From a virus (Duplodnaviria > Heunggongvirae > Uroviricota > Caudoviricetes), in IMG/VR virus record IMGVR_UViG_3300035703_000003: 64,000 nucleotides of DNA; one strand, given 5' to 3'. Shown here piece after piece: positions 7,016 through 54,200 of this stretch; the stretch's first letter is position 1, and each line of letters begins with the position of its first letter. Made by a program: the position numbers and the translations under genes. The notes below the pieces were generated by a model that saw only the letters and a program-made list of their open reading frames with translations, did not search any database and was not told the DNA's origin.

Positions 7016-7022
7016 GTATATT

Positions 7023-7868: not shown

Positions 7869-7875
7869 GTATTAT

Positions 7876-7935
7876 TTTGTCTTTTTTTTTGCCATTAAAA
7901 AAGCCCCGCAGCTTTCGCTTGGGGCCTTGGTGTTC
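7876..7935 (-). terminator. Terminator-like GC hairpin with flanking T/A runs
   Basis: GCCCCGCAGCTTTCGCTTGGGGC hairpin. On the minus strand it is followed by TTTTTTAATGGCAAAAAAAAA. Confidence 0.4.
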
Positions 7936-8294: not shown

Positions 8295-8735
8295 TTACAT
8301 TCCTAGTTTATACGAGCTGTTGCTCACAGTAAACGATTGCTTCCAAGACCATTCGTCTAGAACAAGTTGGTTAAACACATCGTCTTCAAGTTCGATTACG
8401 TCTTCAACACTTAGTTCAAGCATACGAGCTGCACGATTGTAATCACTTTCGTAACTACGTGGTGCAGAAGGGATACCTTTAATCTCTTTAATTTTTTCTA
8501 GATCACCTGTGTTTGCTAGTTTTGCATTTTCTTTTGTGATCTTAACAGTAAGTGTTTTGTAATCGTTAACTGCTTCATCGTATTCAGCAATGTGCTTAAT
8601 CTTGTTTTGACGAACAATCATTAGGAGCTCGTCTTTTTTCATCTTTACACTACGCATAGCGTTTCTCCCATTCATACGCATATTAAACTTCCTTAAAAGA
8701 ATATTTGGTGCCCCCGGTCGGACTCGAACCGACAC
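8295..8735 (-). CDS. Hypothetical protein
   Basis: 146-aa ORF in the minus-strand gene series, ending next to a tRNA. Confidence 0.55.
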   Translation of the reverse strand: MSVRVRPGAPNILLRKFNMRMNGRNAMRSVKMKKDELLMIVRQNKIKHIAEYDEAVNDYKTLTVKITKENAKLANTGDLEKIKEIKGIPSAPRSYESDYNRAARMLELSVEDVIELEDDVFNQLVLDEWSWKQSFTVSNSSYKLGM

Positions 8736-8782
8736 TATGCGGATTTTGAATCCGCCGACTCTACCAATTGGCCTACAGAGGC
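8706..8782 (-). tRNA. Class-I-shaped tRNA with anticodon CAA (Leu codon UUG)
   Basis: Same scaffold as 4528..4604 and 10426..10502: acceptor 3' strand CGGGGGC, discriminator A, D-region GGCCAATTGGTAGAGT, T-arm GTCGG-TTCGAGT-CCGAC. Anticodon stem GCGGA/TCCGC with loop TTCAAAA, 5-nt variable loop. Confidence 0.6.
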
Positions 8783-9069
8783 GATATTAAAACAGAGAGG
8801 AAAGAGTGAGTAATAAAGTTCTAGCAAAGTGCATGTAGCGTGGTATACAGACCTACTTTTGCAAAAAACAAATCGCAATCTACAATGCTTATATTTCCGA
8901 TTATCAACATGCAGTGTCAATTAAGACGAATATAATAAAATCGGAACACATAGCTGGAGACCATAAACGATCATGTTATGCAAGTAACGCTTGCCCGCCT
9001 CTATTCTCTTTTCTCTTTCCTACTCTGGGTAGTTTCGGGCAAGTTGCCTTGCCCTGGGTCTACCAAAAC

Positions 9070-9669
9070 TTATTCTACAATACCTGCACGAGCAAGGAAA
9101 TGCTCTGCTTCATCGTCAAGCACAATTGTAGTGCTTACGTTAAGCTCTAGCAACGAGTCTTGCAGTGCAGTCTTTACTCGCTTTAGACGAGCGAGTTCGG
9201 CTTTGAATTCTTCGATCTTCTCTTTATCGAAGATGTTAGTAGTGACAGTGTCGTCACCGAAACGACCGTAAACGTCTGCTTTGTCACGACCTTTAATCTT
9301 GCCTAGCTTACCGACAAGAACATCGTTAGCTACTGCAGGCTCTAGCTTGCTTAGACGCCCGTATAGCTGCATGTCTTTGTCTAGCATTGCTACATCAGCT
9401 AGCAAGCTATCAATACCGGAAGCGGCGTTAGCATGGGCTACTGCCTTGCGAATTTCGTAAAGAACGCCTAGCAGCTTGCCACGAGTAGCAAGATGTGTCT
9501 CAAAGCGGTTAGTAGCTTCGGACACCTTTTCGCTAGGCTTTTCGAATTCGTTAACCGAAACTTCTGTGCCTAGATCTAGTGTGCCTAGCATTTCATTAAT
9601 TGCGTGTTGTAGTGCGTTTGCTTTACGAAGTGAGATTTCCATTACTTTGTCCTTTGTGTTCGTTTTCAA
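9070..9669 (-). CDS. Hypothetical protein
   Basis: 199-aa ORF with overlapping genes upstream and downstream, consistent with operonic packing. Confidence 0.55.
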   Translation of the reverse strand: MKTNTKDKVMEISLRKANALQHAINEMLGTLDLGTEVSVNEFEKPSEKVSEATNRFETHLATRGKLLGVLYEIRKAVAHANAASGIDSLLADVAMLDKDMQLYGRLSKLEPAVANDVLVGKLGKIKGRDKADVYGRFGDDTVTTNIFDKEKIEEFKAELARLKRVKTALQDSLLELNVSTTIVLDDEAEHFLARAGIVE

Positions 9670-10246
9670 TTTTCTTTGCGATTACTTTGTGTAGACCTGG
9701 ATTAATAACTAGCATTTGTGTTACAACGTTTTCACGAATATAGTTTCTAATGTATGAAGTGTCAAGATTTGATTTGTCTTCAACCCAACTTACATTTTTT
9801 CGTTTACACCAATCAACAAACTCGTGCTTTCTGTTTAACCTAAACGGCCTAATAACGTTTTCATTTTGGTAAGGAATAATTTTACCCTCACCGTGCATAC
9901 TTGACCAAATCCACGTTTCTACACAATCATCCAAATGATGACAAGTGATAACAGGCTTTTGCCAGGCATTTAAAACTTTATAACGTTCGTTCCTCCAGTG
10001 TTCTTCTTGGCTTACGCCCTTAGGAACAACAGTGTTGATATACGAAGTGTATAGTTTTAGTTTAGTATCGTCTGCATACTGCAAAAGAAACTTGTGTGCT
10101 TGTTCACTTGTTTCTGTGCCGTGATGCACAAATTGTAGAGTAATACGATGATTTCTTTTTAGAAAATCAACAATAGCCATACTATCAACGCCGCCACTGC
10201 AAGCAATTACAACGTCTCTGGGTAGTTTGCTTTGGACTTTAATCAT
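9623..10246 (-). CDS. tilS: TilS-like tRNA(Ile)-lysidine synthetase catalytic domain (PP-loop ATPase)
   Basis: PP-loop SGGVDS near the N-terminus. Blocks FVHHGT, CHHLDDCVETW and WVEDKSNLDTSYIRNYIR resemble the TilS N-domain motifs (HVHHGL, QHLDDQCETF, WIEDESNQDDSYDRNFLR) as I recall them. It lies immediately downstream of two CAU tRNAs. Confidence 0.7.
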   Translation of the reverse strand: MIKVQSKLPRDVVIACSGGVDSMAIVDFLKRNHRITLQFVHHGTETSEQAHKFLLQYADDTKLKLYTSYINTVVPKGVSQEEHWRNERYKVLNAWQKPVITCHHLDDCVETWIWSSMHGEGKIIPYQNENVIRPFRLNRKHEFVDWCKRKNVSWVEDKSNLDTSYIRNYIRENVVTQMLVINPGLHKVIAKKIENEHKGQSNGNLTS

Positions 10247-10262
10247 CGCATTACTCTAGTTT

Positions 10263-10338
10263 GGTGGAAGGACTGGGACTCGAACCCAGATAGTTACGTT
10301 TATGAGACGTATGCATTCACCAATTATACTATCCTTCC
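10263..10338 (-). tRNA. tRNA with anticodon CAT (copy A; Met, fMet or Ile2)
   Basis: Acceptor GGAAGGA/TCCTTCC perfect, anticodon stem TACGT/ACGTA with loop CTCATAA, T-arm CTGGG-TTCGAGT-CCCAG, CCA encoded. Confidence 0.7.
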
Positions 10339-10342
10339 GATT

Positions 10343-10419
10343 TGGTAGGGGATACCGGACTTGAACCGATAACCTGCCGATTATGAGTCGGACGCTCTAA
10401 CCAATTGAGCTAATCCCCC
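10343..10419 (-). tRNA. tRNA with anticodon CAT (copy B; Met, fMet or Ile2)
   Basis: Acceptor GGGGGAT/ATCCCCT, D-arm GCTCAATTGGTTAGAGC, anticodon loop CTCATAA, T-arm ATCGG-TTCAAGT-CCGGT, CCA encoded. Confidence 0.7.
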
Positions 10420-10425
10420 TAACTT

Positions 10426-10502
10426 TGGTGCCCCCGGTCGGACTCGAACCGACACTACGCAGATTTTAAGTCTGCTGACTCTACCTATTGGCCTACAAGG
10501 GC
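10426..10502 (-). tRNA. Class-I-shaped tRNA with anticodon TAA (Leu codon UUA)
   Basis: Same scaffold as 8706..8782 (acceptor 3' strand CGGGGGC, D-region GGCCAATAGGTAGAGT, identical T-arm). Anticodon stem GCAGA/TCTGC with loop CTTAAAA, 5-nt variable loop. Confidence 0.6.
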
Positions 10503-10509
10503 GTAGTTC

Positions 10510-10592
10510 TGGTGCGGGCACCCGGACTCGAACCGGGACGCATTGAGCAAGAGATTTTAAGTCTCTCGTGGCTACCATTTCACCATGCCCGC
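10510..10592 (-). tRNA. tRNA-Leu (anticodon TAA), class II with long variable arm
   Basis: Acceptor GCGGGCA/TGCCCGC, anticodon stem AGAGA/TCTCT with loop CTTAAAA, about 11-nt variable region, T-arm CCCGG-TTCGAGT-CCGGG, CCA encoded. Confidence 0.65.
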
Positions 10593-10605
10593 ATAAGTTG
10601 TTTTT

Positions 10606-10682
<77 letters not shown>

Positions 10683-34942: not shown

Positions 34943-36327
34943 TGTCAAATATAACTGCAGTTCCATATTTTTACGATAAACAACTACGCAAATACATTCA
35001 GCAATTTATAAGACTATTTGCAGGATTTCAGTTTGTTATTAGTCAAACCGATTCAGGTGAACCTATATATCAAACAGTCCCTGTTCGTTACGGAGACATG
35101 AACAGAGTAGCTGCACACATTTTAAAACAAAATAGTGAAAATGTTGTCAATACGGTTCCTTTCATTAGCTGCTATGTTATGAGTTTACAAATAGATCCTA
35201 ATAAACGTTCGTATAGTCAATTTGAAGACAGTGTTTCAGTAATCGAAAAAAAGTTCGACACTGACACAAACACTTATAGCAACGAAGCTGGTGACACATA
35301 TACACTACAACGTTATCAACCTGTGCCTTATAAATTAATGATGAATTGTGATATTTGGACTAGCAACACCGAAACTAAGATGCAGTTGCTAGAACAAATT
35401 TTAGTTTTATTCAATCCAAGTGTAAACGTTCATACAAACAACAATGCACTAGACTGGAGCAACTTGGGCATAGTGGAATTAACAAATGTGCAATGGTCAA
35501 ACCGAACAATACCACAAGGTGTCGACGACATAATTGACATTTCTACTCTTACATTTGAAATACCGATATTCATCAACCCGGCAGCAAAAGTTAAACGCAA
35601 CACTGTAATACACACAATCATTGCGAACATACACGATGTTGCAACTGGTTCTGCTGCTTTTATAGAAACAGTAGATGACATTGTTCCTAGATTTACATCA
35701 TATAAAGTTATCACTCTTGAAAATTATAAAATGAGATTTACTGTTAACAGTTCTGGTGTAGCATCTGCTGTATTGCTAAACAGCACAGGCGGAACAACTG
35801 ATAGTAGCGGTAACCCGCTACTATGGTTTGACGTATTGCAAACTTATGGCGAATTTAGAGACGGCGTAACACAATTACGATTAAAACAAACGTCCGATCC
35901 AATGGACACAACCGATGATATTATTGGAACATGTGCTATGCCGGATCCGGATGTTAACGAATTAATTGTTACATTAGATGTTGACACATTACCAGCAAAT
36001 ACACAATCTCCTGTTAACAGTATAATTAATCCAGAATATAGTTATCCCGGAGACGGCACATTGCCTGCTGCTACTAACGGCCAACGCTACTTGATACTTA
36101 ACACTATACCGGTCGGGGGAGCTTGGGGTAGTGTTGTTGCAGATAAAAATGATATTATTCAATACAATGGCACTGTTTGGGCCAGAACATTTGATGCAAG
36201 TGCAACAACAGGAACACATTACACAACTAACTTAACAACACTAGACAAGTTAAAATGGACTGGATCTCAATGGATCAGTGCGTTCGAAGGAACATACAAT
36301 CCCGGGTTTTGGAGAATATACTTGTAA
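34942..36327 (+). CDS. Hypothetical structural protein
   Basis: 461-aa ORF. Start overlaps the upstream stop (ATGTAATG). Confidence 0.5.
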   Translation: MSNITAVPYFYDKQLRKYIQQFIRLFAGFQFVISQTDSGEPIYQTVPVRYGDMNRVAAHILKQNSENVVNTVPFISCYVMSLQIDPNKRSYSQFEDSVSVIEKKFDTDTNTYSNEAGDTYTLQRYQPVPYKLMMNCDIWTSNTETKMQLLEQILVLFNPSVNVHTNNNALDWSNLGIVELTNVQWSNRTIPQGVDDIIDISTLTFEIPIFINPAAKVKRNTVIHTIIANIHDVATGSAAFIETVDDIVPRFTSYKVITLENYKMRFTVNSSGVASAVLLNSTGGTTDSSGNPLLWFDVLQTYGEFRDGVTQLRLKQTSDPMDTTDDIIGTCAMPDPDVNELIVTLDVDTLPANTQSPVNSIINPEYSYPGDGTLPAATNGQRYLILNTIPVGGAWGSVVADKNDIIQYNGTVWARTFDASATTGTHYTTNLTTLDKLKWTGSQWISAFEGTYNPGFWRIYL

Positions 36328-36785
36328 TGATTACAGCAAGTGGTTGCTGCTTCCTCGCATTAGATACCGGACGAATAATGCTACAACAACGGAGTACTGA
36401 AGTAACTCATCCACTTACATGGAGTTTTTGGGGCGGCAAGAGTGAAAATACCGAACGTCCTATCGAAACACTGTTACGAGAATGTAAGGAAGAAACGGGT
36501 CCTCTGCCTGACATAGAAAAAGTTTATCCTATACATACGTTTATAAGCGACGATAACAACTTCACATATCATACTTTTTGTGTAACAGTATTCGAAGAGT
36601 TTATACCGTTATGTAATAAAGAAAGCGCCGGCTATGCGTGGATTAAACTTGGCGCTTGGCCAAAACCCTTGCATAGAGGCGCTAAACTTGTTTTAGATAA
36701 ACCAGAGATGGTCGATAAAATAAAAACTATATATGATAGACAAAAAGGAAAACTCGATCTACCGAATTGGTTAGATAGTTTTTAG
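36326..36785 (+). CDS. Nudix hydrolase
   Basis: Nudix box GGKSENTERPIETLLRECKEETG (GX5EX7REUXEEXGU). ATG overlaps the upstream stop codon (TAATGA). The track ORF 36255..36785 uses an earlier alternative start. Confidence 0.75.
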
Positions 36786-37883
36786 TTCGCTAGCTACTCT
36801 TTTATATTCTTCCGAGTCTGTTCCGTAAATTTTAGCAATTTTATCTATCTTATTTTTTAGTATAATTTCTTTTCTTGTGTCTTCTAAATCAAAATTGATA
36901 CTATTGTATTCATCAAATCTTTTATCCAATGCAATAAAATCACTAAAGTCTATATTTACGTTATTTTCTATATCAATTAATGCAAATGTTGAGCCATCAA
37001 TAGCATATTTAGATGACAGTAAGTCAGATGAGAGAGACATATAAGAAGATAGTATTTTATTTTTTTGAGATTTAGTCGAAAGCAACATTTTGTCTTTATA
37101 GAGCATACTCGATGTTGCATACGATCTAACCCATGCAAATTTTGGATCTGTTAAATCGTTCAAAACGCCAATTGGTTCGGTGCTAAGTATCGATTTCTTA
37201 ATAAGATGTGAAATTTTATCTTTTGTTTTAGCTTGTATGTGCCTAATATAATCTGTAGGTATTAACATTGCACTGTAGTCAGAGTAGATTAAACCGGTAG
37301 ATTTATGCTTAACCGGAATATAATAAATTGTATCATTGTTGTCGGGTTTGATGTTAAAATTATATCGTAAATCAATATCTACATCTAAATCTATTAACCA
37401 TATATGAGAAACATTTAGTCTGTGCAAATCTATAGAAAAAATAATCTCATCTAAATTTTGTTTAGGTCTTATTAATTTATATCTTAATTCTTTTGGTTTT
37501 TCTAATAATTTTTTTGTAATATTTCGATCAAGCATAGAATAAAAGTATACATCAGCATATGTATAGCTAGCAATTGATTTACTCCTGACTGTATTTGATA
37601 TTACATTTGTTGGGACTAGTTTTATCACGTTCCAATCTATTGGCTTTTTAGATTCAAAAAAGCATCTAGCAAACAGATATTCTGTTTCCTTTTCTTCCGG
37701 ATAAAAGTTATAGTCGAAATCGTCGATTATTTGATCTTTGTATCTTTTATTCAAAATCCAAACAAACGGTGTGTCTGTATAACGTGCTGCTATGCTATTA
37801 TCGTGAAATTCTGATTCTTCTACTTCAATAATAGGCCAACGTTTAAAATTGCGCTTAGTTAAACTAAATGCTGTTCGTAACAT
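36771..37883 (-). CDS. Hypothetical protein, AT-rich, co-operonic with the glycosyltransferase
   Basis: 370 aa, rich in N/K/I/Y. Markedly lower GC than the flanking genes. Confidence 0.5.
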   Translation of the reverse strand: MLRTAFSLTKRNFKRWPIIEVEESEFHDNSIAARYTDTPFVWILNKRYKDQIIDDFDYNFYPEEKETEYLFARCFFESKKPIDWNVIKLVPTNVISNTVRSKSIASYTYADVYFYSMLDRNITKKLLEKPKELRYKLIRPKQNLDEIIFSIDLHRLNVSHIWLIDLDVDIDLRYNFNIKPDNNDTIYYIPVKHKSTGLIYSDYSAMLIPTDYIRHIQAKTKDKISHLIKKSILSTEPIGVLNDLTDPKFAWVRSYATSSMLYKDKMLLSTKSQKNKILSSYMSLSSDLLSSKYAIDGSTFALIDIENNVNIDFSDFIALDKRFDEYNSINFDLEDTRKEIILKNKIDKIAKIYGTDSEEYKRVASELKTI

Positions 37884-38473
37884 TATATAGTTCCCAATTC
37901 AACTGTTCCTAAATGGTAACATTTTTTACTAGTATCGACATCAACGTAAAGATTATATCCACTATCAACTAATCGTCGACAAAAATATATATCTTCACCT
38001 AAATACGAACTTGTTTGAACATCGTAATCAAACATAAACCACGGTTTAGTTATAGATCTATAAACATCTATGTTTGTTAACATAAGTCCCATGCCCACGC
38101 TAGATACGTTATGAACGCCAACAGATGCAGTTAATCTGTCATTAAAATCGTGCGTTAGGAAGGCCACGTTTCTGTATGGTTTTGTTCTAGTAGAATATGT
38201 GCAAGCTACAATATCGTAATTGTGCGACGACAATCTCTGATATAAATTTTTAGGAAAAACCATATCACTATCAAGCCAAAGTATGTAATCACATTTTGCA
38301 TTTAATGCACTACTTACTAAGGCAGTTCTTTGCTCAGGTAACACACTACCGTTTTGAAAAAACAAATTATAATCTACATTTGACCTAACTAAATGAGACG
38401 TTAATTCGTTTAAGCAATACGCAAATGCAGAATGAACTGTGTCCCGAACTGGAACACAAATTGCCAATTTCAT
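37883..38473 (-). CDS. GT-A fold glycosyltransferase (family-2-like)
   Basis: N-terminal ICVPVRD, DxD-type motif ILWLDSDMVFP and GEDIYFCRRLVDSGY block are typical of GT2-like enzymes. Confidence 0.6.
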   Translation of the reverse strand: MKLAICVPVRDTVHSAFAYCLNELTSHLVRSNVDYNLFFQNGSVLPEQRTALVSSALNAKCDYILWLDSDMVFPKNLYQRLSSHNYDIVACTYSTRTKPYRNVAFLTHDFNDRLTASVGVHNVSSVGMGLMLTNIDVYRSITKPWFMFDYDVQTSSYLGEDIYFCRRLVDSGYNLYVDVDTSKKCYHLGTVELGTI

Positions 38474-38910
38474 GTCATCAAATCGTCAGGAATAATATCT
38501 TCAGATGTAACTGATCGTTCTGCTTCTTTTGAAACATGATTTAAATAAGAAGCTATTTTTGTTACTTCTGAAACACATTCTTCGAAGTGTCTTCTAGGCA
38601 ATGATGAAATTCTCCCCATAGTCAATGATGTGACTTTTCCTTGTGAGACAAGTTCAACTGCACCTTCTTTAGCTAATCGCTTAATCCAATATTCAATTTC
38701 TTTAGCTTCAGTCATGACCAATTCTTCTTTAGGATACGATGACTCGTACTCTGACTTTAGATCTCCAAGTAATTGAATTAGAGATTTATTTTTATTAAAG
38801 AAGGAACGACTATTTTCTAACGTTAAATCTTCGCATATTTTTTTATATTTGCTTGCTACAGTAGGGTAGTTAGCTAAAGTAAATGTAGTGTATTCGAATT
38901 TTGTTGTCAT
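38470..38910 (-). CDS. Hypothetical protein
   Basis: 146-aa ORF, AT-rich, 4-bp overlap with the glycosyltransferase gene. Confidence 0.5.
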   Translation of the reverse strand: MTTKFEYTTFTLANYPTVASKYKKICEDLTLENSRSFFNKNKSLIQLLGDLKSEYESSYPKEELVMTEAKEIEYWIKRLAKEGAVELVSQGKVTSLTMGRISSLPRRHFEECVSEVTKIASYLNHVSKEAERSVTSEDIIPDDLMT

Positions 38911-38930
38911 TGATTTCTCCTATGAGTTTT

Positions 38931-39092
38931 CTTTTATCGACCGCCGAAACTTGAACTTAAGCAAACAGGGTTACCTACTGTAATACCGATGATCGTGCCA
39001 AGCGCACTTAAGCACCTGGCACTACCAGACGCAAAACCGTAATATACTTGAACAGTATTGATTGTTATAAAAGTGCCTGTTGCGGGTAACGC
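38931..39092 (-). CDS. Small hydrophobic ORF (about 53 aa, MALPATGTFITINTVQVYYGFASGSARCLSALGTIIGITVGNPVCLSSSFGGR) not in the track
   Basis: Hand translation. Lies between the giant fibre gene and the glycosyltransferase cassette. Confidence 0.25.
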
Positions 39093-39142
39093 CATTTAAT
39101 AAATCCTAGATTCTTTTTATACTAACATATTTATTAGCGACG

Positions 39143-42100
39143 TCAACCGTTTAATTTACTTTCTAACTGTGCTACTCTTTCTGCTAATTCCTTGTTTTGA
39201 ACTGTCAGCTCTTTAACAGCTTCAATTAGTAAACCAACCATGTTACCATATGCAACAGTTTTTATACCGTCTTCGTTTGTGATTACTACTTCTGGAATTA
39301 CTTCTTCGACTTCTTGTGCAATAACACCCATATGGGTTTTATTATCGTCTAAGTCTTTTCTAGTAAATGTAACACCACGAAGTTTTAATACTTTTGTTAA
39401 CGGATCTGATATTATTTCAATATTATCTTTTAATGTAACATCTGAGTAAGCACACACGTCACCTGTAGCAGTAAATGTTCCGGTATAAGAACCTGTCATT
39501 GCTACAGTAGGAGACCAACCTTCGCCTGCTGTTCCTGTTACCGAGATGCCGTTACCAGCAGTAAGTCCTGCTACATAGTTACCGGTTGTATCTGTTCCAA
39601 GAGCAACACTATTTGCAGCAATAGTAGCAGTGATTGTGATATCTGCACTTCCGTTAAACGAAGCAGATCCGGTTACATCTCCACCGAGTGAAATTGTTCT
39701 TGCTGTTGTAAGAGTCGCAGCAGAACCTGTAATATTGATGCCCCAGTTGCCAGAAGCGCCAGAACCAGTTAGTGTTGGGGCAAAGGATGTGTAATTAGTT
39801 CCGTCTAATATTGTGCGCCAAGCTGTTAAAGTACCGTTATTTCTACCCCTTACTGCTAATTGACCAGTCCTATAATCGCCAAATATTTGATGAACCCAAC
39901 TAGAACTATAAGCCTGTGAATATAAAGCACCGTCTGTTTGCCCCAGAAGAGAAACCCCAGTAATATAGCCTATGCCGTTATCATTGATAGTATCTGGACC
40001 AGCTCCATTTGTAGAATTTCCGTTCCTGAATTCAATGCCATCGATTTGGCCGGCAGTGGTTGCGCTAGAAGCATTACCACTCAAGGTAGCAGTAATAGTT
40101 CCTGCACTAAAGTTTCCACTTGCATCACGTGCAACAATGGCGTTAGCAGTATTTGCATTTGTTGCAGTAGTAGCGGAGTTTGATACCTTACCTGCAGTTG
40201 AAATTGTTGCTAATTTTGTGTCAACTATACCTGCGGCGGAATTAATATCTGCGTTAACAATCGAATCTGCAGTGATAGCCGCTGATATTGCAATGTTAGC
40301 ACTTCCATTGAACGAAGTAGCAGTTCCTGTCACATCGCCGCTTATCGCAATAGTCCTAGAAGTTTGAAGTGTGGTTGCTGTAGTTGCGTTTCCGCTCAAT
40401 GCCGCAGTAATTGTTCCTGCAGAGAAGTTACCGCTACTATCACGGAATACAATTGTGCTGCCAGTGTTAGCATTAGTTGCGTTCGATGCTACTGTAAAAG
40501 TAGAACCGCTAGATTGGTTAGCAGTAAATGTTGCACTGCCGCTTAACCCGTTTCCAGAAACAGCCAATGTTAAAGTTCCGTCGTTAGGAACACTGTATTC
40601 TGCACTTGTTGGTATATTAAAGTATGTCGAACCATCGTTTGTAAACTGCCAACGATCTGTTGTTTCATTCCATATTAATGCAGTGTTAGTGCTAGTTCCA
40701 CGTTCAATTTCGATGCCTGCGTTTTGACTAGGAGTTCCGGTTTCATCGGCATTTAAGGTGATAATATTATCACCTACGTTTAATGTAGTTGTATTAACAT
40801 AAGTTGTAGTCCCTGTTACAGTTAAGTTACCATATATGTTTACTGTATTAGTTGCACCCGAAGTGCTTGACCCGATGTTAATTGCAGTTGTTGATCCACT
40901 TGCACCGCCGGTTCCGAGGTTAATGGTCTTTGTTACACCACTAGCATTTGTTCCGGTTGCAATATTAAGTGTGTGAGCAACAGTCGATCTGTCAAGAGTG
41001 ATAGTTCCGGTTTGTGAAGTGCCACCTATTGTTAATGCACCCGATGTTTGTGCAGTTGCAAAGTCGACTGCAGCGGTTGTATTGCCACCTAGTAATGTAG
41101 TTGCAACGTTGCCTGCAGTAATAGTTCCGCCTGATACAGTTAAGTTGCCGGTAACAGTTCCTGCGCCGGCAACGTTAATTAAACCGCCAACAAATAAGTT
41201 ACCGTTCATACCAACGCCGCCGTCAACAGTTAACGCACCAGTGTCAACAGTTGTTGATGCTGTAGTATTTGTGATTGCAATAGCAGTTGCAGTTGTAGCA
41301 CCACGACCTGTTACAGATGAAAGAGTATCTGCTTCTGTTCCTGTTATAGTAATTGTGTTAGCATCAGTTCTTGTTACAGATACAATACCGCTACCAACAA
41401 AAGCAACGTTATCTGTAGATGCATCGCTACCTGTTAATCTTAATACAGTATTAGTCGCAGTTTCTGCGCTTATAGTGTATGTTGTATTTGAACCAGCAGC
41501 GGTCCAAGCTAGCTGACCCGAGCCGTTTGTTTGTAGTAAGTAACCGTTAGAACCATCGGATGTTGGCCATCTTAACCCGTCGAGTTGGATGTATCCGGAT
41601 CCGTCTGGTGTGATTAAAATGTTACCGTTACTTCCTACTGCACTAACAATGCTTTGACCGTTAACATCTAAGTTACCACCAAGTTGCGGAGTTGTATCTT
41701 CTACAATATTTCCAGTTAAACCGCCCGATGTAATAAGTGCTGCACTGAAGAAAGTCCCGCTACCATCCACTGTTCCTTTTTGTAAAACTTGGCTTGTGGT
41801 GTTTGAAGTAAATACCGTAAAATCAAGATAATCTGTTGTGCCATTTAGATATATCGTTCTATTAAGATTTGGTGATTGACCGGTAGAAGTGTTAATTATT
41901 TCTTGACTTAAAGCATATGAATTTCCGTTTTTCCTAATTTGCAAATTAGTTTGATTGTTGGAAATTACACCAGCTACCCACCATGCAGATAAAGTAACAT
42001 CATAATATCCAGCAATAGTCGGAGTAAACCGTTTAGTTGTTGGGTTCCACCAACTTTGTGCATCATCATAATCCACAAAATTAATTAATGTGTCTGCACC

Positions 42101-45100
42101 AGATGTCACTGTTTGATCTGTAGATAGTATACCTATAGCTATATAAGAACTAGCGACAATCCCGCCGCCAGCAACGTTTTGGAAATTCAACTGTCCGGCA
42201 CCGTTAGTTACAAGAGCCTGACCAATGGATCCGTCTGTTGTAGGCCATTTAATTGAGTTAATATCAACACCGCCGGTACCCGAACGAATTGCTACAGATG
42301 AAGTGCTGTTAGTGCTACCAATAGTAACAGCGGTCACACCACTAGTGGTCGAGCCGGTTGCAATGTTAACGGTTTTGGTTCCTGATGTATTTGCACCAGT
42401 CGCAATGTTAAGTGTATGAGCACTAGTGCTAGGATCTATTGTCATAGTTCCTGTTTGACTAGTACCGCCGACAGTTAGTGTTCCGCTAGTTAATGCGTTT
42501 GCAAAGCTGATGTTAGTAGTTGTGTTACCACCTAGTAATGTGGTTGCAACGTTACCTGCGCTAATGTCGCCGCCACCTACAAATAAGTCGCCTCCTATAC
42601 CAATACCACCTGTTACTATTAATGCACCAGAACTAGTGCTTGTAGAGTTAGTTGCGTTTGTTATAGAGATCGCAGTTGCAGTAGTTGCACCACGACCAGT
42701 GACAGACGATAATGTGTCGCTTTCTGCAAAAGTATTTGTAATTCTGATAGCATCACTGGCTGCATCAACGTCAATATTGATACCTGAACCACTTACAAGT
42801 GTTAGTGTGTCACCTGTCGCATCTGCTACTGCGCTACCTGTTCCTGCCCAGGTGTAACCGCTATCAGTATCTGTTACAGTAATAGTTCCAAAGTCTGAAC
42901 TTTGGCTTGTTAAGTATGTTGCTGTAGTAACCGCAGTTACGTGACCCATTTCATCAACAGATATACTTGCTATACCTGCAGATCCTTGGCTACCGCTTAA
43001 TGTCGATGTGTCTGCGTGAGCGAATGTAATTGTATCGCCCGATTCTGCAATTGTTAAGCCATAAGTTGTTCCAGTTGCACCTACTGCTAGAATTATGTCA
43101 TCTGTTCCGCTACCACTGCCGCCCGCTGTTAAACGAATAATCTCACTGTATATGTCGCCCCCTGCTTCGGTGCTTACACTGTAAGTTGTGTTAGTGTTAG
43201 TGACTGTTTCTGATCCAGTTGTATACGCTGTAACGTGTCCAAACGTATCAAATGTTAGACCTGTAACATATGTTCTAGAAGTTGCGGTTAAGTTTGCTGC
43301 AGAACTAGTATCTGCGTGAGCAATAGTTGCAGCGGTTCCTTCGCCTGCCGATGCGCTTATTGTAAGACCGCTTGTTCCTGTTTGAACTCCCGGAGTTCCG
43401 TCTGCAAGAGTTGCAACATAGTTACCAGTTGTATCTGTTCCAAGAGCAACACTATTTGCAGCAATAGTAGCAGTGATTGTTATATCAGCACTTCCGTTAA
43501 ACGAAGCAGATCCACTTAAATCACCGCCGAGTGAAATTGTTCTTGATGTTGCAAGTGTTGTTGCTGTAGTTGCGTTTCCACTAAGTGCCGCAGTGATAGT
43601 TCCTGCTGCAAAGTTACCACTACTATCACGAGCAACAACTTTTGATGCTGTATTTGTAGTAGTTGCGTCGACTGCTAGCGTTAGCCCGGCGCCTTCACTT
43701 CCGCCATTACCGCCAGTGATATATGAGCCGTTTGTAATACTTGCTACGTAGTTACCGGTTGTATCTGTTCCTAGCGCAACGCTATCTGCTGCAATAGTTG
43801 CTGTTAATGTTACGTTAGCACTTCCGTCTATACTTACGTTACCAGATAAATCGCCGGCTAATGTGATAGTTCTAGCTGTTGTCCAACTTGCTGCAGAACC
43901 TGTTATGCTTGCAACATCAAGTATTCCTGTTGTTCCGCTAAACACTTCACTTGTATTAGTTGCATCTGGAATAAAAGTAAATCGACCTGTGCTATCATCA
44001 AATCCAAAGAAACCTACCTTTGCTGCACTTCCATTGTGCCAACGGAATTCGATACCACGATCTTTATTATCATCGGTACTAGGTGCAGTGTCGCCACCTA
44101 ATGTAAGTATCGGATCATCTAGTGTTACGGTTGTGCTATTAACTGTAGTTGTAGTTCCATTTACAGTCAAATTACCAGTTACTGCTAAATTGTTATTAAC
44201 TGTGACTGTGCCACCAGATGCACTACCCAAGTTTATGTTAGTTGTTGAGCCAGATGCACCGCCTGTTCCTATGTTAACAGTTTTAGTAGTTGCGTTTGCA
44301 ACTGCGCCAGTTGATATATTAGTTGTACTTGCTGCAGTGCTGTCGTAACCTAAGTTAAGTGTTGTAGTTGCACCAAATGCGTTAACTGTTGTAGCAGTTG
44401 TATCAAATAATCCCATTGTTGCACTTGCTGCAACTATACTTGTAGTAAACGACGGACTAGTGCCAAATACTAATGCACCACTGCCAGTTTCATCACTAAT
44501 TACACCGGCTAATTCAGAGGATGAAGTTGCAGCAAAAACTGAAAGTTTATTTGCAGTGACAGCTAACGTGCCGCTTGCAGGAACAGTTACCGATGACCCG
44601 CCAGCATCTGCCGTTAATGTAATATTTCCTGTGTTCAGAGTTATAGTTCTGCTACCGTTGTTAACACCGGTTCCACCATATGTTGGGCTAATAATGCTGC
44701 CATTCCATGTTCCACTAGTAACAGTTCCAACAGTTGTAGCAGCGGCGGAATTAACAGCCGCAGTTGTAACAATTTCAGTTCTTACGTTTGCAAGTGTTTT
44801 TGGTCTAATTGCACCATCACTGGCTATTTCCACATAGTAATGTGTTGCAGCGGTTGTAGTATCTGAAGCCGATGACGTGATAGTTCCTGCACTAAAGTTA
44901 CCACTTGAGTCTCTTGCAACTATCGCACTATTTGTGTTTGAACTTGTAGCAGTGGTTGCAGAATTTGATACTTTACCTGCAGTCGAAATAGTTGCTAGTT
45001 TAGTATCGGCTATTGCTGCACTTGCGTTAATATCTGCGTTTACAATCGAATCAGCAGTGATGGCTGCTGATATTGCAATATTAGCACTACCATCGAATGA

Positions 45101-47161
45101 AGTGGCAGTTCCAGTTACATCTCCGCTTATTGCAATAGTTCTTGCTGTTGCAAGTGTTGTTGCTGTAGTTGCGTTTCCACTAAGTGCCGCAGTGATAGTT
45201 CCTGCTGCAAAGTTACCGCTGCTATCACGAGCAACAACCTTTGATGCTGTATTTGTAGTAGTTGCGTCTACAGCTAGTGTTAACGTTGCACCTTCACTGC
45301 CGCCATTACCACCTGTTATGAATGAGCCGTTTGTAATACTTGCTACATAGTTACCGGTTGTATCTGTTCCAAGAGCAACACTATTTGCACCGATTGTTGC
45401 AGTTAATGTCACGTCAGCAGTTCCGTTTATACTAACATTTCCTGATAAATCACCACCAAGTGTTATTGTTCTACTATTTGCCCATGAACTAGCTGTAGTT
45501 GCATTTCCGCTTAGTGCCGCAGTTAATGTTCCAACAACTGTTAAGTCACCTCGCACATTTGCATCATTTGCAACTTCTAAAGAATTGTGTATCCTTGCAT
45601 TATTATAAACTATTAAATTATTTTTAACGTGTAAATCTTCGTCAACTATTAATCTATTTCCGGTAACTCTAGCCGATTCTGAAGTTGTATCATATTCGAA
45701 TATTTTATCATTGTCTGAACATACCACAAATACTTTGTTAGCAGTCGAGCTTAAATCAAACCCAGACGGATTGGTGGCATTAACTGTTGAAGTAATTGTG
45801 CTGATATCAACTTCATCTGCATATGCTGCAGATGTGATGTTCCAAGAAGAGCTTAAATTAAATTTAGATATAGAATCATGAACACTGTCTAATACATATA
45901 ATGTATTACCATCTGAAGTCATTTTTATTGACGTAGGCTTAGGAACATTTGCAGAAATGCTAAGTTGTTGAGAATAAGTTGCAGTAGTTATGTCCCATGC
46001 AGTTCCTAAGTTATATTCATATATCCTTGTATTTTGTTGGCCCAGTATATACATTTTTGTACCGTCTGGTTTAAAAAATAATCCATGAGGCTGTGTATCT
46101 TGTGAAGATATATCTATGCTATCAACAAATGATGCAGTAGATAAGTTCCAACCGGTAGATAAATCATATTGATGGACACTAGTGCTATCGGTACCTACTA
46201 CATAAATTTTTGTTCCGTCTGCTTTGACAAATAACGATGTTGGTGTAGTTTCCTCTGCACTTACATCAAGTGATTCAAGATAACTTAATGTATCTACTTT
46301 ATAAGGAGTGTTAAATAAATACTGGTAAACAGTAGCTAAACTTCCAGTCGATAGCAGATAAAATCCGTTTGTATTATCGATAAAAATTTCTGTTACATTG
46401 GTATCTTCAGAAGTAGTGCTAAACAAGTTTCCGTTGTATTTCCAAGAATCTGTGCCGGTAGTAGATCCAACAGATACTTCGCCAAAATCGATTGCAGTTG
46501 CAGCAATGTTTCCGTTAACATCAAGTTTAAAGCTAACACCTGGTGTTGTAGTATCGCTTTCGCCATACCCTAATCTCATACTATGAGCAACTGTAAGTTT
46601 ACCATCAGTTGTAAGTGCCATTGCACCTTGTGCAACAGTATGTGTCGAATCGCCCCACCAGAATCCTTGACTATTATTATTATCCATTTGGAAAGTCATG
46701 GCTTTTTCTGTATCAACACCACCATAAGTTACACTGTCTACTAAACCTATTGTATATGTGCTATTATTCCATAGTCTATACTTGTCTCTACCACTTGCGG
46801 CTGATAGAGTAACATTACCGCCAGATACTATTAAATTCCCCGCAACATCCAATTCACCTGTGCTTTTGATTCTGAGCTTTTCTGCGGCTGTGGCGCCAGC
46901 TGCCATTGTTTTAAATACAAAGTCAAAATCTTCACTACCTGATGTTACATCAGTTGTTACAACTTCAATCAAACCACCGATTTCATTATTAGTGTTGCTA
47001 GTTTCTGTAATAAATCGAAGTCCGGTACCTATGCCATTGGCAGGTGTCCCTGTGGTAGTATGCGTTAGCGTAATTGGATAAACTACGCTATCATTAAAAG
47101 CATCATTTTCTGTATATGTGCTAAACGCTGTATTTAAAAATTCGCTTAGATATTGCGCCAT
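39143..47161 (-). CDS. Giant tail fibre protein (2672 aa) with repetitive beta-rich core and C-terminal intramolecular-chaperone (peptidase S74-like) domain
   Basis: About 100-aa tandem repeats (ARDSSGNF(A/S)AGTITAALSGNATTATTLAT(A/S)RTI...). Conserved fibre block LDDPILTLGGDTAPSTDDNKDRGIEFRWHNGSAAKVGFFGFDDSTGRFTFIPDA. C-terminus ...CAYSDVTLKDNIEII...LRGVTFTRK...HMGVIAQEVEEVIPEVV matches the autoproteolytic chaperone domain of endosialidases and L-shaped fibres. Confidence 0.75.
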   Translation of the reverse strand: MAQYLSEFLNTAFSTYTENDAFNDSVVYPITLTHTTTGTPANGIGTGLRFITETSNTNNEIGGLIEVVTTDVTSGSEDFDFVFKTMAAGATAAEKLRIKSTGELDVAGNLIVSGGNVTLSAASGRDKYRLWNNSTYTIGLVDSVTYGGVDTEKAMTFQMDNNNSQGFWWGDSTHTVAQGAMALTTDGKLTVAHSMRLGYGESDTTTPGVSFKLDVNGNIAATAIDFGEVSVGSTTGTDSWKYNGNLFSTTSEDTNVTEIFIDNTNGFYLLSTGSLATVYQYLFNTPYKVDTLSYLESLDVSAEETTPTSLFVKADGTKIYVVGTDSTSVHQYDLSTGWNLSTASFVDSIDISSQDTQPHGLFFKPDGTKMYILGQQNTRIYEYNLGTAWDITTATYSQQLSISANVPKPTSIKMTSDGNTLYVLDSVHDSISKFNLSSSWNITSAAYADEVDISTITSTVNATNPSGFDLSSTANKVFVVCSDNDKIFEYDTTSESARVTGNRLIVDEDLHVKNNLIVYNNARIHNSLEVANDANVRGDLTVVGTLTAALSGNATTASSWANSRTITLGGDLSGNVSINGTADVTLTATIGANSVALGTDTTGNYVASITNGSFITGGNGGSEGATLTLAVDATTTNTASKVVARDSSGNFAAGTITAALSGNATTATTLATARTIAISGDVTGTATSFDGSANIAISAAITADSIVNADINASAAIADTKLATISTAGKVSNSATTATSSNTNSAIVARDSSGNFSAGTITSSASDTTTAATHYYVEIASDGAIRPKTLANVRTEIVTTAAVNSAAATTVGTVTSGTWNGSIISPTYGGTGVNNGSRTITLNTGNITLTADAGGSSVTVPASGTLAVTANKLSVFAATSSSELAGVISDETGSGALVFGTSPSFTTSIVAASATMGLFDTTATTVNAFGATTTLNLGYDSTAASTTNISTGAVANATTKTVNIGTGGASGSTTNINLGSASGGTVTVNNNLAVTGNLTVNGTTTTVNSTTVTLDDPILTLGGDTAPSTDDNKDRGIEFRWHNGSAAKVGFFGFDDSTGRFTFIPDATNTSEVFSGTTGILDVASITGSAASWTTARTITLAGDLSGNVSIDGSANVTLTATIAADSVALGTDTTGNYVASITNGSYITGGNGGSEGAGLTLAVDATTTNTASKVVARDSSGNFAAGTITAALSGNATTATTLATSRTISLGGDLSGSASFNGSADITITATIAANSVALGTDTTGNYVATLADGTPGVQTGTSGLTISASAGEGTAATIAHADTSSAANLTATSRTYVTGLTFDTFGHVTAYTTGSETVTNTNTTYSVSTEAGGDIYSEIIRLTAGGSGSGTDDIILAVGATGTTYGLTIAESGDTITFAHADTSTLSGSQGSAGIASISVDEMGHVTAVTTATYLTSQSSDFGTITVTDTDSGYTWAGTGSAVADATGDTLTLVSGSGINIDVDAASDAIRITNTFAESDTLSSVTGRGATTATAISITNATNSTSTSSGALIVTGGIGIGGDLFVGGGDISAGNVATTLLGGNTTTNISFANALTSGTLTVGGTSQTGTMTIDPSTSAHTLNIATGANTSGTKTVNIATGSTTSGVTAVTIGSTNSTSSVAIRSGTGGVDINSIKWPTTDGSIGQALVTNGAGQLNFQNVAGGGIVASSYIAIGILSTDQTVTSGADTLINFVDYDDAQSWWNPTTKRFTPTIAGYYDVTLSAWWVAGVISNNQTNLQIRKNGNSYALSQEIINTSTGQSPNLNRTIYLNGTTDYLDFTVFTSNTTSQVLQKGTVDGSGTFFSAALITSGGLTGNIVEDTTPQLGGNLDVNGQSIVSAVGSNGNILITPDGSGYIQLDGLRWPTSDGSNGYLLQTNGSGQLAWTAAGSNTTYTISAETATNTVLRLTGSDASTDNVAFVGSGIVSVTRTDANTITITGTEADTLSSVTGRGATTATAIAITNTTASTTVDTGALTVDGGVGMNGNLFVGGLINVAGAGTVTGNLTVSGGTITAGNVATTLLGGNTTAAVDFATAQTSGALTIGGTSQTGTITLDRSTVAHTLNIATGTNASGVTKTINLGTGGASGSTTAINIGSSTSGATNTVNIYGNLTVTGTTTYVNTTTLNVGDNIITLNADETGTPSQNAGIEIERGTSTNTALIWNETTDRWQFTNDGSTYFNIPTSAEYSVPNDGTLTLAVSGNGLSGSATFTANQSSGSTFTVASNATNANTGSTIVFRDSSGNFSAGTITAALSGNATTATTLQTSRTIAISGDVTGTATSFNGSANIAISAAITADSIVNADINSAAGIVDTKLATISTAGKVSNSATTATNANTANAIVARDASGNFSAGTITATLSGNASSATTAGQIDGIEFRNGNSTNGAGPDTINDNGIGYITGVSLLGQTDGALYSQAYSSSWVHQIFGDYRTGQLAVRGRNNGTLTAWRTILDGTNYTSFAPTLTGSGASGNWGINITGSAATLTTARTISLGGDVTGSASFNGSADITITATIAANSVALGTDTTGNYVAGLTAGNGISVTGTAGEGWSPTVAMTGSYTGTFTATGDVCAYSDVTLKDNIEIISDPLTKVLKLRGVTFTRKDLDDNKTHMGVIAQEVEEVIPEVVITNEDGIKTVAYGNMVGLLIEAVKELTVQNKELAERVAQLESKLNG
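39950..45360 (-). repeat. Multiple near-identical ~0.3-kb nucleotide repeats inside the giant fibre gene, also shared with gene 51217..57033
   Basis: Antisense track ORFs 43473..43751, 44877..45350 (and 39972..40367) translate to nearly identical peptides (...ASVVAVVAFPLSAAVIVPAAKLPLLSRATTFDAVFVVVASTASV...), as do 53795..54073 and 54083..54718 in the second gene. The underlying DNA is therefore roughly 90 percent or more identical. Confidence 0.7.
45660..46295 (-). repeat. Four tandem copies of an approximately 50-aa repeat in the N-terminal part of the giant fibre
   Basis: Repeats read ...FVKADGTKIYVVGTDSTSVHQYDLSTGWNLSTASF..., ...FFKPDGTKMYILGQQNTRIYEYNLGTAWDITTATY..., ...KMTSDGNTLYVLDSVHDSISKFNLSSSWNITSAAY... 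and a fourth variant. Confidence 0.5.
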
Positions 47162-51216: not shown

Positions 51217-54200
51217 TTATGCAAGGAGAAGAGTCTGAACTATTTTATATTGTGTGCTATTGGTACTTACTTGTGTTGCTAATATTCTAACATTTCCACT
51301 ACTAATGTCAACATCATATGCTGCTAAATCACTAGCGCCTGTGTTAACCATAGCATATTGTGTTGCACTAGCTGTAGTTCCGTTGTGAACAATTAACATT
51401 TCTGTTATGCTTCTTGCACCGGATACTGTATCTCTAGCTTGTATAACAACTTTGCCGCCGCCAAACGTAGTAGCACTGAATGATGCAATTGATGTTTGTG
51501 TAACGGTTGCTAATGTAGCAGTTGCACTATCTAAATTATATGTGCTATCAATTCTGATTGCACCGTCAACATGTAACTTTTCTGCTGGTGTTGAAGTATT
51601 AATACCAACATTGCCGTTTAATAATGTGTAACCTGTTCCAGTTGGAGTTAATGTTATATTTTGGTCAGAACCACCGGCTGTAATAGTAATTGCGCTCGAA
51701 CCGGTTATATTACCTACACCAGTTAAATTACCCGAAACATTTGCACTACCATCGAAGTTTTGACCCCACAGAGTTCTTGTAGTTTGTAGTGTAGTTGCAG
51801 TTGTTGCGTTTCCGCTTAACGCTGCAGTAATAGTTCCGGCAGTAAAGTTACCGCTTGAATCCCTGGCAACTATAGCACTGTTTGTATTTGAACTAGTCGC
51901 TGTTGTTGCAGAGTTGGATACTTTACCCGCAGTTGATATTGTTGCTAGTTTTGTATCAGCAATTGCTGCAGCGGAATTTATGTCTGCGTTTACAATTGAA
52001 TCAGCAGTGATAGCCGCTGATATTGTGATATCGGCGCTTCCATTAAACGAAGTAGCAGTTCCTGTGACATCTCCACTTATCGCAATGTTTCTTGCTGTAG
52101 TTAGTGTGTCTGCATTACCTGCTGTTGCAACGTTTAGATTTGAAACTCGAGTCGTTGATGTAATTACAAATGGCGCTGTGCCAGTTGCAATGGTGTTTGT
52201 TAATTGGTTGTTCATGTTAAGTGTAGTTACACTAGTAAGAGAACCTGTAACGTTAGCAGAACCATTGAAGTTTTGACCCCAAAGTGTTCTAGTAGTTGTT
52301 AGTGTTGCTGCACTACCTGTTGTGTTCTGGTTACCAGTAGTATTAACACCTGGCAAATCAATATTAGCCGATCCATCAAAACTTACACCGCCAATATTTC
52401 TTGCAGTTTGTAATGTTGTTGCTGTAGTTGCATTTCCACTTAATGCAGCGGTAATTGTTCCTGCAGTAAAGTTACCACTTGCGTCTCTAGCAACAATAGC
52501 GTTAGCTGTGTTTGCGTTTGTTGCTGTTGTTGCCGTGTTGGATACTTTACCTGCAGTTGAAATCGTTGCTAGCTTTGTATCAGCAATTGCTGCAGCGGAA
52601 TTTATATCTGCGTTAACAATTGAATCAGCAGTGATAGCTGCTGATATTGTAATATCAGCGCTTCCATTAAACGAAGTAGCAGTTCCTGTGACATCTCCAC
52701 TTATCGCAATGTTTCTTGCAGTTTGTAGTGTAGTTGCAGTAGTTGCGTTTCCACTTAATGCAGCGGTAACTGTTCCTGCGCTGAAGTTGCCGCTCGAATC
52801 TCTAGCAACTATAGCACTATTTGTATTTGAACTAGTAGCAGTAGTAGCGGAGTTTGATACTTTACCAGCTGTTGATATTGTTGCTAGCTTTGTGTCAACT
52901 ATACCTGCTGCGGAATTTATATCTGCGTTAACAATTGAATCAGCAGTGATAGCTGCCGATATAGTGATATCGGCGCTTCCATTGAACGACGTTGCAGTTC
53001 CTGTCACATCTCCGCTTATTGCAATATTTCTTGCTGTTGCTAATGTTGTTGCAGTAGATGCATTACCTACTAGAGCACCCCTAAAGTTTGCTGCTTGAAT
53101 ATCAGCAAGAGCAAAAGAGGCATGACTAGTATCAATAAATGGACTTACATCTGGCTCTGGGGTATATCCTTTAAATACTTTAAAATATCCATCACTTGCA
53201 TCCCTAAAGAAGCCGCCGTGTTGATAAGAAGTATCATAATATCCAAATGCAAAACCTAAATCCGGATTTGCATTTGTTCTTGCTCGTGCTGTTCCGCCCG
53301 AAACATATGAACCAGTTGCAGTATTTGCTATAGTAAACGAATTCGTTGCAACTGCAGTTATAGTTTGATTTGATAAGTTATACGCAGATGGATCTACACC
53401 GATAATACTTACAGACATACCCGGTGTATAATTATGAACTTCGTTGGTGGTATAAACAACGTTTGTGCCATCTCCTACTACATTGGTTATGGTTGTTAAT
53501 ATCGCCTGATTCATGTAGATCATATTATCAGTTACTGATAAATTAGCAGCGGTAGTGGTGGTAGTTGTACCACCTACAGACAAGTTACCGTCTATAGTGA
53601 CATTACCATCGAACAATCCATTATTAAATGTCACGTTTGCAGTAGTCGAAACGTCTTGTCCGATTGCAATTGTTGGAGTTGCACCTTCACCTGTGTTGTT
53701 TGATAATGTTACACCCGTGCCTGCTACAAGACTTGCTACGTAGTTACCAGTTGTATCAGTTCCAAGAGCAACACTATCTGCAGCAATTGTTGCAGTGATA
53801 GTAATATCAGCCGACCCATTGAACGAAGCAGACCCGCTCAGATCTCCTCCAAGGGAAATAGTTCTTGATGTCGCAAGTGTAGTTGCTGTAGTTGCGTTTC
53901 CACTTAGTGCCGCAGTGATAGTTCCTGCTGCAAAATTACCACTACTATCTCGAGCAACAACCTTTGATGCTGTATTTGTGCTAGTTGCGTCGACAGCCAG
54001 TGTTAGTCCAGCGCCTTCGCTTCCGCCATTGCCACCAGTGATGTATGATCCGTTTGTAATACTTGCTACGTAGTTACCAGTTGTGTCGGTGCCAAGAGCA
54101 ACACTATCTGCTACAATAGTTGCAGTTAATGTTACGTTAGCACTTCCATCAATACTCACATTACCTGATAAGTCACCACCGAGTGTTATTGTTCTACTAT

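Follow-up and report, generated by a model that had tools for sequence, protein, structure and literature searches.

What does a compact, AT-rich cluster of genes do immediately behind a giant fibre gene in a large phage? This question is raised by positions 36771-39095 of IMG/VR record IMGVR_UViG_3300035703_000003, a caudoviricete virus sequence of which we analysed a 64-kb stretch (64,000 nucleotides, here called the window). A preliminary description of this DNA had proposed a three-gene cassette, acquired horizontally, whose glycosyltransferase (GT) acts either on the fibre or virion, or on the host surface. We found that the region is a conserved four-gene accessory module that closes the fibre operon of a lineage of uncultured, large T4-like myoviruses. 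To the reading that this module glycosylates virion proteins, probably fibres, late and in the cytoplasm, we give about an even chance. Of the two functions proposed earlier, glycosylation of the fibre or virion appears to fit the genomic context best.

The four genes lie on the minus strand, where they follow, in order, the major capsid gene, three fibre or virion genes and the giant fibre gene (39143-47161, 2672 amino acids (aa)). They are o53 (38934-39095, 53 aa), o146 (38470-38910, 146 aa), GT196 (37883-38473, 196 aa) and X370 (36771-37883, 370 aa). The preliminary description had listed a small hydrophobic open reading frame (ORF) at 38931-39092 beside a cassette of three genes. That ORF exists, as o53, at slightly different coordinates, and its hydrophobicity is borderline (best 19-residue Kyte-Doolittle mean 1.66). 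Because it encodes a conserved protein, which is fused N-terminally to others in some relatives, o53 belongs to the unit, and the real unit has four genes. The 4-bp overlaps that had been described were found between o146 and GT196 (ATGA), but GT196 and X370 overlap by only 1 bp (TAATG). By this arrangement, GT196 is translationally coupled to both o146 and X370. At its 3' end, X370 overlaps by 15 bp a convergent NUDIX hydrolase gene on the plus strand (36327-36785; Pfam NUDIX, E = 5.4e-13). This gene is the downstream boundary of the module and lies outside it, since a NUDIX-gp15 pair is also found in Pseudomonas phage PA5oct, which lacks the cassette, and since the nucleotide identity of NUDIX between relatives tracks that of the flanks, not that of the cassette.

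How widespread is this arrangement? The source phage is an uncultured large T4-like myovirus: the window, which is made up of tRNA genes, structural genes and genes without assignment, contains the genes for a tail-sheath stabiliser, gp15 (Pfam T4-gp15_tss), a major head protein and several giant fibre proteins, as well as an array of 30 tRNAs. The nearest cultured relatives as judged by gp15 are PA5oct, Agrobacterium phage Atu_ph07 and Sinorhizobium phage Phosso, at 35-39% identity. A megablast search of positions 36000-39500 against cultured phages gave no match, and with blastn the sole match was to the fibre C-terminus. An IMG/VR scan, by comparison, yielded at least 579 loci with a relative of GT196. 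Our set of relatives comprised 95 GT-bearing loci: the top 80 from IMG/VR and 15 from exact-protein look-ups. In about 70 of them, the fibre gene is followed by o53, o146, GT and X and then, in reverse orientation, by NUDIX, gp15 and s363 (the gene of a 363-aa structural protein adjoining gp15), and these syntenic loci reach down to approximately 40% identity in the GT and 30% in gp15. In PA5oct, s363, gp15, NUDIX and a convergent fibre gene are present, and the cassette is absent. The module is old and holds a fixed position across the lineage.

GT196 has 105 homologous clusters in metagenomes. A search of 185,579 species genomes gave 59 GT matches, all of them on contigs of metagenome-assembled genomes (MAGs); outside phage contigs and MAG contigs, no member of the GT196 family was found. 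A 248,233-bp contig, of a size typical of jumbo phages, that had been binned with a Flavobacteriaceae MAG (L102, CBFHJJ010000001.1) carries fibre, o53, o146 and GT genes, and this binning points weakly to a possible host group for the lineage.

The preliminary description had inferred horizontal acquisition from base composition. The AT-richness itself was confirmed by the GC profile: the GC content of 36771-38910 is 0.309, compared to a window mean of 0.401 (standard deviation 0.029 for windows of the same size), which makes it the lowest 2.14-kb stretch in the window (0.08th percentile). By gene, GC is 0.287 for X370, the lowest of all genes, 0.338 for GT196 and 0.324 for o146. An enrichment in N, K, I and Y had also been described, but this is a property of X370 only. 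Its combined N/K/I/Y/F fraction (0.386) is the maximum for the window, while those of GT196 (0.25) and o146 (0.27) are ordinary. Codon usage is native in all three genes. Their z-scores for GC at third codon positions are -0.7 to -1.3, and they rank 21, 12 and 6 of 38 in distance by relative synonymous codon usage, within the range of other genes. Most of the GC deficit falls on first codon positions (z = -1.6 to -2.4). Moreover, in almost every relative, X has a lower GC content than any of its neighbouring genes (mean 0.318 versus 0.376). A deficit centred on first positions, together with native codon usage, indicates that the AT-richness mirrors amino-acid composition, and it is a family trait.

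These data bear directly on whether the cassette is a recent foreign island, taken from an unrelated AT-rich donor and specific to this phage. Such an origin would account for the lowest GC in the window, and X370 and o146 have no DNA or protein match in cultured phages (tblastn found none for either). However, it is contradicted by synteny, by the low GC of X throughout the family and by codon usage. An orthologous module lies at the same position in about 70 loci that are deeply diverged (down to ~30% identity in gp15), and both third-position GC and synonymous codon usage fall within the range of other genes, with the deficit in first positions. In addition, Pfam and PHROG searches found no mobility genes within the cassette. 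We therefore consider a foreign island highly improbable; the distinct GC content stands, but not the horizontal acquisition that had been read from it.

Comparison of close relatives showed a different kind of mobility. In four loci (L002, L003, L004 and L006), DNA identity to the window is 99.8-100% for o146 and 99.5-99.8% for GT, but only 88% for X, 84-86% for o53, 87% for NUDIX and 90-91% for gp15. In two others (L007 and L010), the pattern is reversed: NUDIX and gp15 are ~91% identical to those of the window, while o146 (75-76%), GT (74%) and X (62%, in a forced global alignment) are far more diverged, and X gave no blastn match at all. At the protein level, X of the window is 36% identical to X of L007-L010, where the flanks are 95-97% identical. 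The identity of the cassette is strongly incongruent with that of its flanks, which shows that o146-GT and X are swapped as alleles among related phages. In these comparisons, the o146-GT pair acts as one discrete unit of recombination and X as another, variable one, both exchanged within the lineage. Thus, the module is a recombination hot spot, not a foreign island.

Is GT196 an active enzyme? It had been described as a GT2-like enzyme of the GT-A type, with a DxD motif (LDSDM) and a GEDIYFC motif. Both motifs are present (residues 67-71 and 159-165), with Asp residues of catalytic type kept, and a GT-A enzyme is plausible. Its assignment to GT2 did not hold up: Glycos_transf_2 (PF00535) scored 18.9 bits, below its cut-off of 23.3, and over residues 53-95 only. 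Anp1 (PF03452, family GT62) was the sole Pfam family above cut-off (E = 1.1e-7, 32.1 bits, cut-off 28.8), and many GT196 homologues carry the same precomputed match. The Anp1 match spans only profile positions 122-187 of 263, the third of the profile centred on the DxD. We do not place GT196 in GT62, as the match is partial and GT196 is too small and has no membrane anchor. GT196 also matched phrog_1574 (E = 1e-19). A family profile, built from an alignment of 26 sequences with 36-85% identity, matched two proteins of known structure in the PDB, Mnn9 (3zf8, E = 1.5e-6) and A197 of Sulfolobus turreted icosahedral virus (STIV; 2c0n, E = 5.6e-6 over 147 residues, 17-163).

Across these 26 sequences, which reach down to 36% identity and include homologues from small phages, 19 positions are invariant. 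They include R10, R49, W66, D68, S69, D70, G159, E160, D161, F164, C165 and H187, where D68-S-D70 is the DxD, within W66-L-D68-S69-D70. The GED motif is a candidate for the catalytic base, and H187 may be a metal-binding or acceptor-side residue. No membrane segment was found in GT196 (best 19-residue hydropathy 1.20, no N-terminal anchor). The invariance of DxD, GED and His down to 36% identity argues for retained catalysis, and GT196 is a soluble, minimal, metal-dependent GT-A enzyme that is probably active.

What does the enzyme act on? The strongest clue comes from where its homologues are found. In the complete 39.7-kb genome MW202711, and in L076 and L081, the gene order is portal, scaffold, major capsid, a 100-aa ORF, GT and tail tubular protein A. 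In three small podovirus-like loci (L088, L090 and L096), the GT and, after it, a methyltransferase-like gene are followed by portal, scaffold and major capsid genes. A siphovirus-like MAG contig (L139) has its GT between the portal and head-tail connector genes, with major tail protein and tape measure genes beyond. The distant homologue in cyanophage P-SSM2 lies just upstream of the baseplate genes gp25, gp6 and gp7, between two genes for 2-oxoglutarate (2OG)-Fe(II) oxygenases. Together with the fibre operon of the present lineage, the first three of these contexts place the GT family among virion genes in four unrelated phage backgrounds. We considered the ORFs upstream of the GT in the small phages as possible o146 homologues, and rejected them as not homologous. 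The protein that follows the GT in the podovirus-like loci (L088:8801-9355, L090:8839-9402, L096:8844-9401) has ~185 aa and motifs that, judged by eye, resemble those of class I S-adenosylmethionine (SAM) methyltransferases. In L011, one of the relatives, genes for a Methyltransf_24 protein and a 2OG-Fe(II) oxygenase lie upstream of the module.

Further points favour virion glycosylation, beside the tight coupling on one strand behind the capsid and fibre genes, the conserved synteny and the exchange of o146-GT alleles. The fibres are rich in Ser and Thr (28.7% of the giant fibre, 28-29% for the fibres overall), the GT family has so far turned up only on phage and MAG contigs, and there is a precedent for such glycosylation in mycobacteriophages. 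The giant fibre would be the likeliest acceptor. It ends in a Peptidase_S74 intramolecular chaperone domain (PF13884, E = 4.4e-15, within the last 399 aa), and its orthologues in relatives (2766-2768 aa) have the same S74 domain.

The gene contexts also bear on a quite different target, the phage DNA. The GT would then glycosylate hydroxymethylated phage bases as protection against restriction, in the manner of T-even phages, and its alleles would vary as part of an arms race against nucleases that depend on modification. The textbook example of such modification is that of T4-like phages, and closely related T-even phages differ in their glucosyltransferase genes, just as the cassette differs here between near-identical phages. 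Viruses encode a diverse range of DNA-hypermodifying GTs (Pyle et al. 2024, as cited in PMC12619734). However, GT196 had no Pfam, PHROG or PDB match to the T4 alpha- and beta-glucosyltransferase families. In the four phage types, its gene lies within virion modules and not among nucleotide-metabolism genes. The complete genome MW202711 encodes a full-length GT homologue but has no annotated thymidylate-synthase-like hydroxymethylase, and the NUDIX neighbour, as described above, also occurs in PA5oct without the cassette. We judge a role in DNA hypermodification to be very unlikely.

The second function in the preliminary description was O-antigen conversion that excludes superinfection. More broadly, the GT, perhaps together with X, could glycosylate lipopolysaccharide (LPS), O-antigen, capsule or S-layer, so that the receptor is masked and superinfection excluded, or progeny kept off debris. 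Soluble GT-A enzymes do build LPS cores, and a diversifying allelic exchange would also suit an arms race at the cell surface. The distant homologue gp109 of P-SSM2 (251 aa) is listed under 'cell wall synthesis and modification' (PMC12801897). On the other hand, we found no membrane segment in GT, o146 or X370, no GtrA-, GtrB- or GtrC-like or flippase partner in Pfam and NCBIfam searches, no lysogeny genes in the neighbourhood, and no match to a defence-system family in PADLOC. The place of the module at the end of the capsid and fibre block suggests late expression, when masking of the receptor is least useful. The small-phage homologue sits between major capsid and tail genes, and the 185,579 species genomes gave no isolate-genome homologue in a polysaccharide locus. 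Modification of the host surface is therefore unlikely, and O-antigen conversion as described finds no support, given the soluble proteins, the missing Gtr-like partner and the position in the virion block.

The last gene of the module, X370, had no match in Pfam, PHROG or NCBIfam, and an exhaustive search of 1.84 billion representatives returned only 35 relatives. Orthologues of X in 68 loci range from 352 to 2008 aa and consist of tandem units of ~95 aa, with 2-17 units per protein. The long forms have an N-terminal unit, 3-16 internal tandem units and a conserved C-terminal domain. They include L068:8600-14626 (2008 aa, up to 17 units) and L014:10582-14130, as well as proteins in L029, L055 and L064; they end in a DxD-bearing domain, and searches against Pfam and PHROG gave no family match for them. 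The consensus of the repeat is SKPKKYDKFEINTYEDYLEALEKSKTEMFWLVPSDVEVSEDFKFDLYFSHDNEYDRKINHVFLNGEKYDGIVLLSKKAKVTEKEIEHRFLVNKKE. The profile of the repeat unit also matched the C-terminal domain (i-E = 2e-9); where the repeats have P-x-D-V, that domain has an invariant V-D-x-D-A at the aligned position.

The C-terminal domain of X has a beta-alpha-beta pattern as in GT2 enzymes. Matches to Pfam GT2 fell short of the threshold (9 of 16 and 5 of 15 members), and a search of the PDB matched dolichol-phosphate mannose synthase (5mlz) at E = 1.1, while a more diverse profile gave no PDB match. With hhalign, no relationship to the GT196 family was detected. A GT2-like origin of this domain is therefore suggestive only. 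Short forms of X are of two kinds, those with an intact DxD domain (for example in L065) and those, including the X370 subfamily, in which the position of the DxD is variable. An AlphaFold2 (AF2) model of X370 from a 5-sequence alignment was unusable (predicted local distance difference test (pLDDT) 39). X370 is best described as a putative decayed two-unit member of a glycosyltransferase-derived repeat family. The sole homologue of the C-terminal domain in a cultured phage, at 46% identity, is encoded by gene 348 of Ralstonia phage RsoM2USA (L101:8998-9699), a stand-alone protein of 233 aa that adjoins a radical SAM protein gene, with other neighbours unannotated.

The two remaining partners are conserved proteins. 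For o146, the predicted model was confident (pLDDT 90) and all-helical; fold searches with it gave no informative match, and those in BFVD returned only uncharacterised phage proteins. Orthologues of o53 are found in 71 loci, one in each, always directly upstream of o146, with the consensus MALPaTGs.I.m.qirnyfg...LGtyigis.g..i..S.tFGG. Here it stands alone; some relatives have it as the N-terminal part of a larger protein, of 341-716 aa (L014:7418-9568, and in L025 and L068). Neither o53 (Pfam, PHROG and NCBIfam) nor the 716-aa fusion protein (Pfam and PHROG) gave a usable match. The o53 sequence has a strictly conserved N-terminal M-A-L-P-x-T-G and an internal duplication (G..I.MS...FG). A sortase-like reading of its LPATG was rejected, because the motif is N-terminal and part of the internal duplication.

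Could these proteins serve in assembly rather than catalysis? In that case, the GT-fold protein, o146, o53 and X would be fibre adaptors, chaperones or GT-derived sugar binders, and no sugar would be transferred. This would agree with the place of the module after the fibre genes and with o53 as the N-terminal domain of larger proteins. It would also suit X, a fast-evolving protein (36% protein identity where the flanks have 95-97%) of 352 to 2008 aa, in which most units no longer have a DxD. However, the DxD, GED and His of GT196 are invariant in all 26 sequences, the fibre, with an S74 chaperone domain of its own, does not need o146 as a chaperone, and relatives of the PA5oct type build fibres without the module. 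A purely non-enzymatic role for the whole module is quite unlikely, although a non-catalytic role may apply to X370.

We therefore favour glycosylation of virion proteins, with the following sequence of events. The genes of the module would be expressed late, together with the fibre genes, as suggested by their position in the virion structural block. GT196 would bind a nucleotide-sugar through its DxD and a divalent metal, and attach the sugar to Ser/Thr-rich virion proteins. This would take place in the cytoplasm, ahead of assembly or while it is under way; in this phage, the acceptors would most likely be the giant fibres. The o146 protein may be an acceptor-recognition or stabilising partner of GT196, and X370 a decayed GT2-like second transferase, perhaps without catalytic activity today. 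An exchange of o146-GT alleles would then alter the type of glycan on the virion surface. A more specific version, which we offer as a tentative possibility with the odds clearly against it, is that o146-GT forms a swappable 'glycotype' cassette that fixes the fibre sugar, and that X is a hitherto undescribed GT-derived array of 2-17 units with a DxD in the last unit only. Such an array might bind glycans multivalently, or it might be a scaffold or a processive partner.

Several points weigh against virion glycosylation. The GT is 99.5-100% identical in relatives where the DNA of the fibre C-terminus is only ~91% identical, and a near-identical GT over a divergent fibre C-terminus indicates that the GT and this end of the fibre are not closely linked in inheritance. 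Location in a structural operon is circumstantial. Donor and acceptor are inferred, as are the parts played by o146, o53 and X: the fold searches with o146, BFVD included, were uninformative as to its role, and the GT2-likeness of X is below threshold. The GT196 family has no characterised member, and STIV A197 offers no substrate to go by. Finally, the distant cyanophage homologue has been assigned to cell-wall modification, without experiments (PMC12801897).

Other features of the window were noted in passing. The T4 late-promoter motif TATAAATA is not enriched in it (4 found versus 5.3 expected), and scans for sigma-70 promoters and terminators gave background levels only. The 30 tRNA genes are arrayed on the minus strand at 72-10682, and the array explains an ORF-poor stretch of higher GC at 3.6-8.3 kb. 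One of the tRNAs (5658-5730, anticodon TCA) was called as tRNA-SeC, and could be an opal (UGA) suppressor. Two minus-strand ORFs between tRNA blocks, 1290-2051 (253 aa) and 2055-2849 (264 aa), have a GC of 0.33, nearly as low as the cassette, and no PHROG match. A DNA module of ~350 nt is repeated several times between positions 39500 and 55200, with 70-87% identity, within and between the genes of the 2672-aa fibre and of a 1938-aa fibre (51217-57033). With blastn, relatives matched it at approximately 40.1-40.5, 43.5-43.7, 44.9-45.2, 51.8-53.1 and 54.2-54.6 kb, and the fibres of close relatives are mosaic.

If virion glycosylation is correct, it extends this kind of modification to a large uncultured lineage of T4-like aquatic phages, and if the o146-GT unit does fix the fibre sugar, virion glycans would be a variable arms-race trait of aquatic phages, analogous to the O-antigen serotypes of bacteria. 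If one of the alternatives holds, the module is an ordinary accessory GT locus; in either case, its AT-richness is explained without foreign acquisition. The analysis also defines a GT family that occurs only on phage and MAG contigs and always among virion genes, provides a concrete case of allele swapping at a putative glycosylation locus between near-identical phages, and brings to light the uncharacterised X repeat family and the conserved partner o146.

How does the module compare with known systems? Phages are known to use glycosyltransferases in DNA modification and serotype conversion and, from more recent work, in glycosylation of the mycobacteriophage virion. The three-gene, seroconverting Gtr cassettes (GtrA/GtrB/GtrC) for O-antigen glucosylation in temperate phages resemble this locus in being phage cassettes with a GT-A enzyme. 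However, Gtr proteins are membrane proteins that use a bactoprenol-linked sugar, are expressed from the prophage and adjoin an integrase gene or att site, and none of these features is found here. The Mnn9, Anp1 and Van1 subunits of yeast mannan polymerase (PF03452, GT62; 3ZF8) share the GT-A fold with GT196 and act on glycoproteins. They are type II membrane proteins of the Golgi with more than 300 aa, whereas GT196 has 196 aa and no anchor, so mannosyltransferase activity cannot be assumed from the GT62 match.

Two further comparisons concern viral proteins. STIV A197 (PDB 2C0N) is, like GT196, a virus-encoded protein with a single GT-A domain and of similar size (203 versus 196 aa). Its D-E-D aligns with D68-S-D70 of GT196, and its GEDVYF with GEDIYF. 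In contrast to GT196, it belongs to a virus of archaea whose virion is built differently, and it has no partners like o146, o53 or X; the similarity is remote, and it informs the fold rather than the function. The putative glycosyltransferases of cyanomyoviruses, such as PSSM2_106, belong to the same PHROG (phrog_1574, E = 1e-19) and likewise come from T4-like phages, with 27-29% identity to GT196 over residues 60-178 in tblastn. They are longer (251 aa) and are flanked by 2OG-Fe(II) oxygenases instead of o146 and X. Their annotations read hypothetical or 'cell wall modification', with no experiments behind them (PMC12801897). For function, the mycobacteriophages are our model. Their phage-encoded glycosyltransferases decorate capsid and tail-tube proteins (Freeman et al. 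2023, as cited in PMC12619734). The hosts and the type of phage differ, and it is genes alone that we describe, whereas in the mycobacteriophages, by this cited account, the glycans on the virion have been demonstrated.

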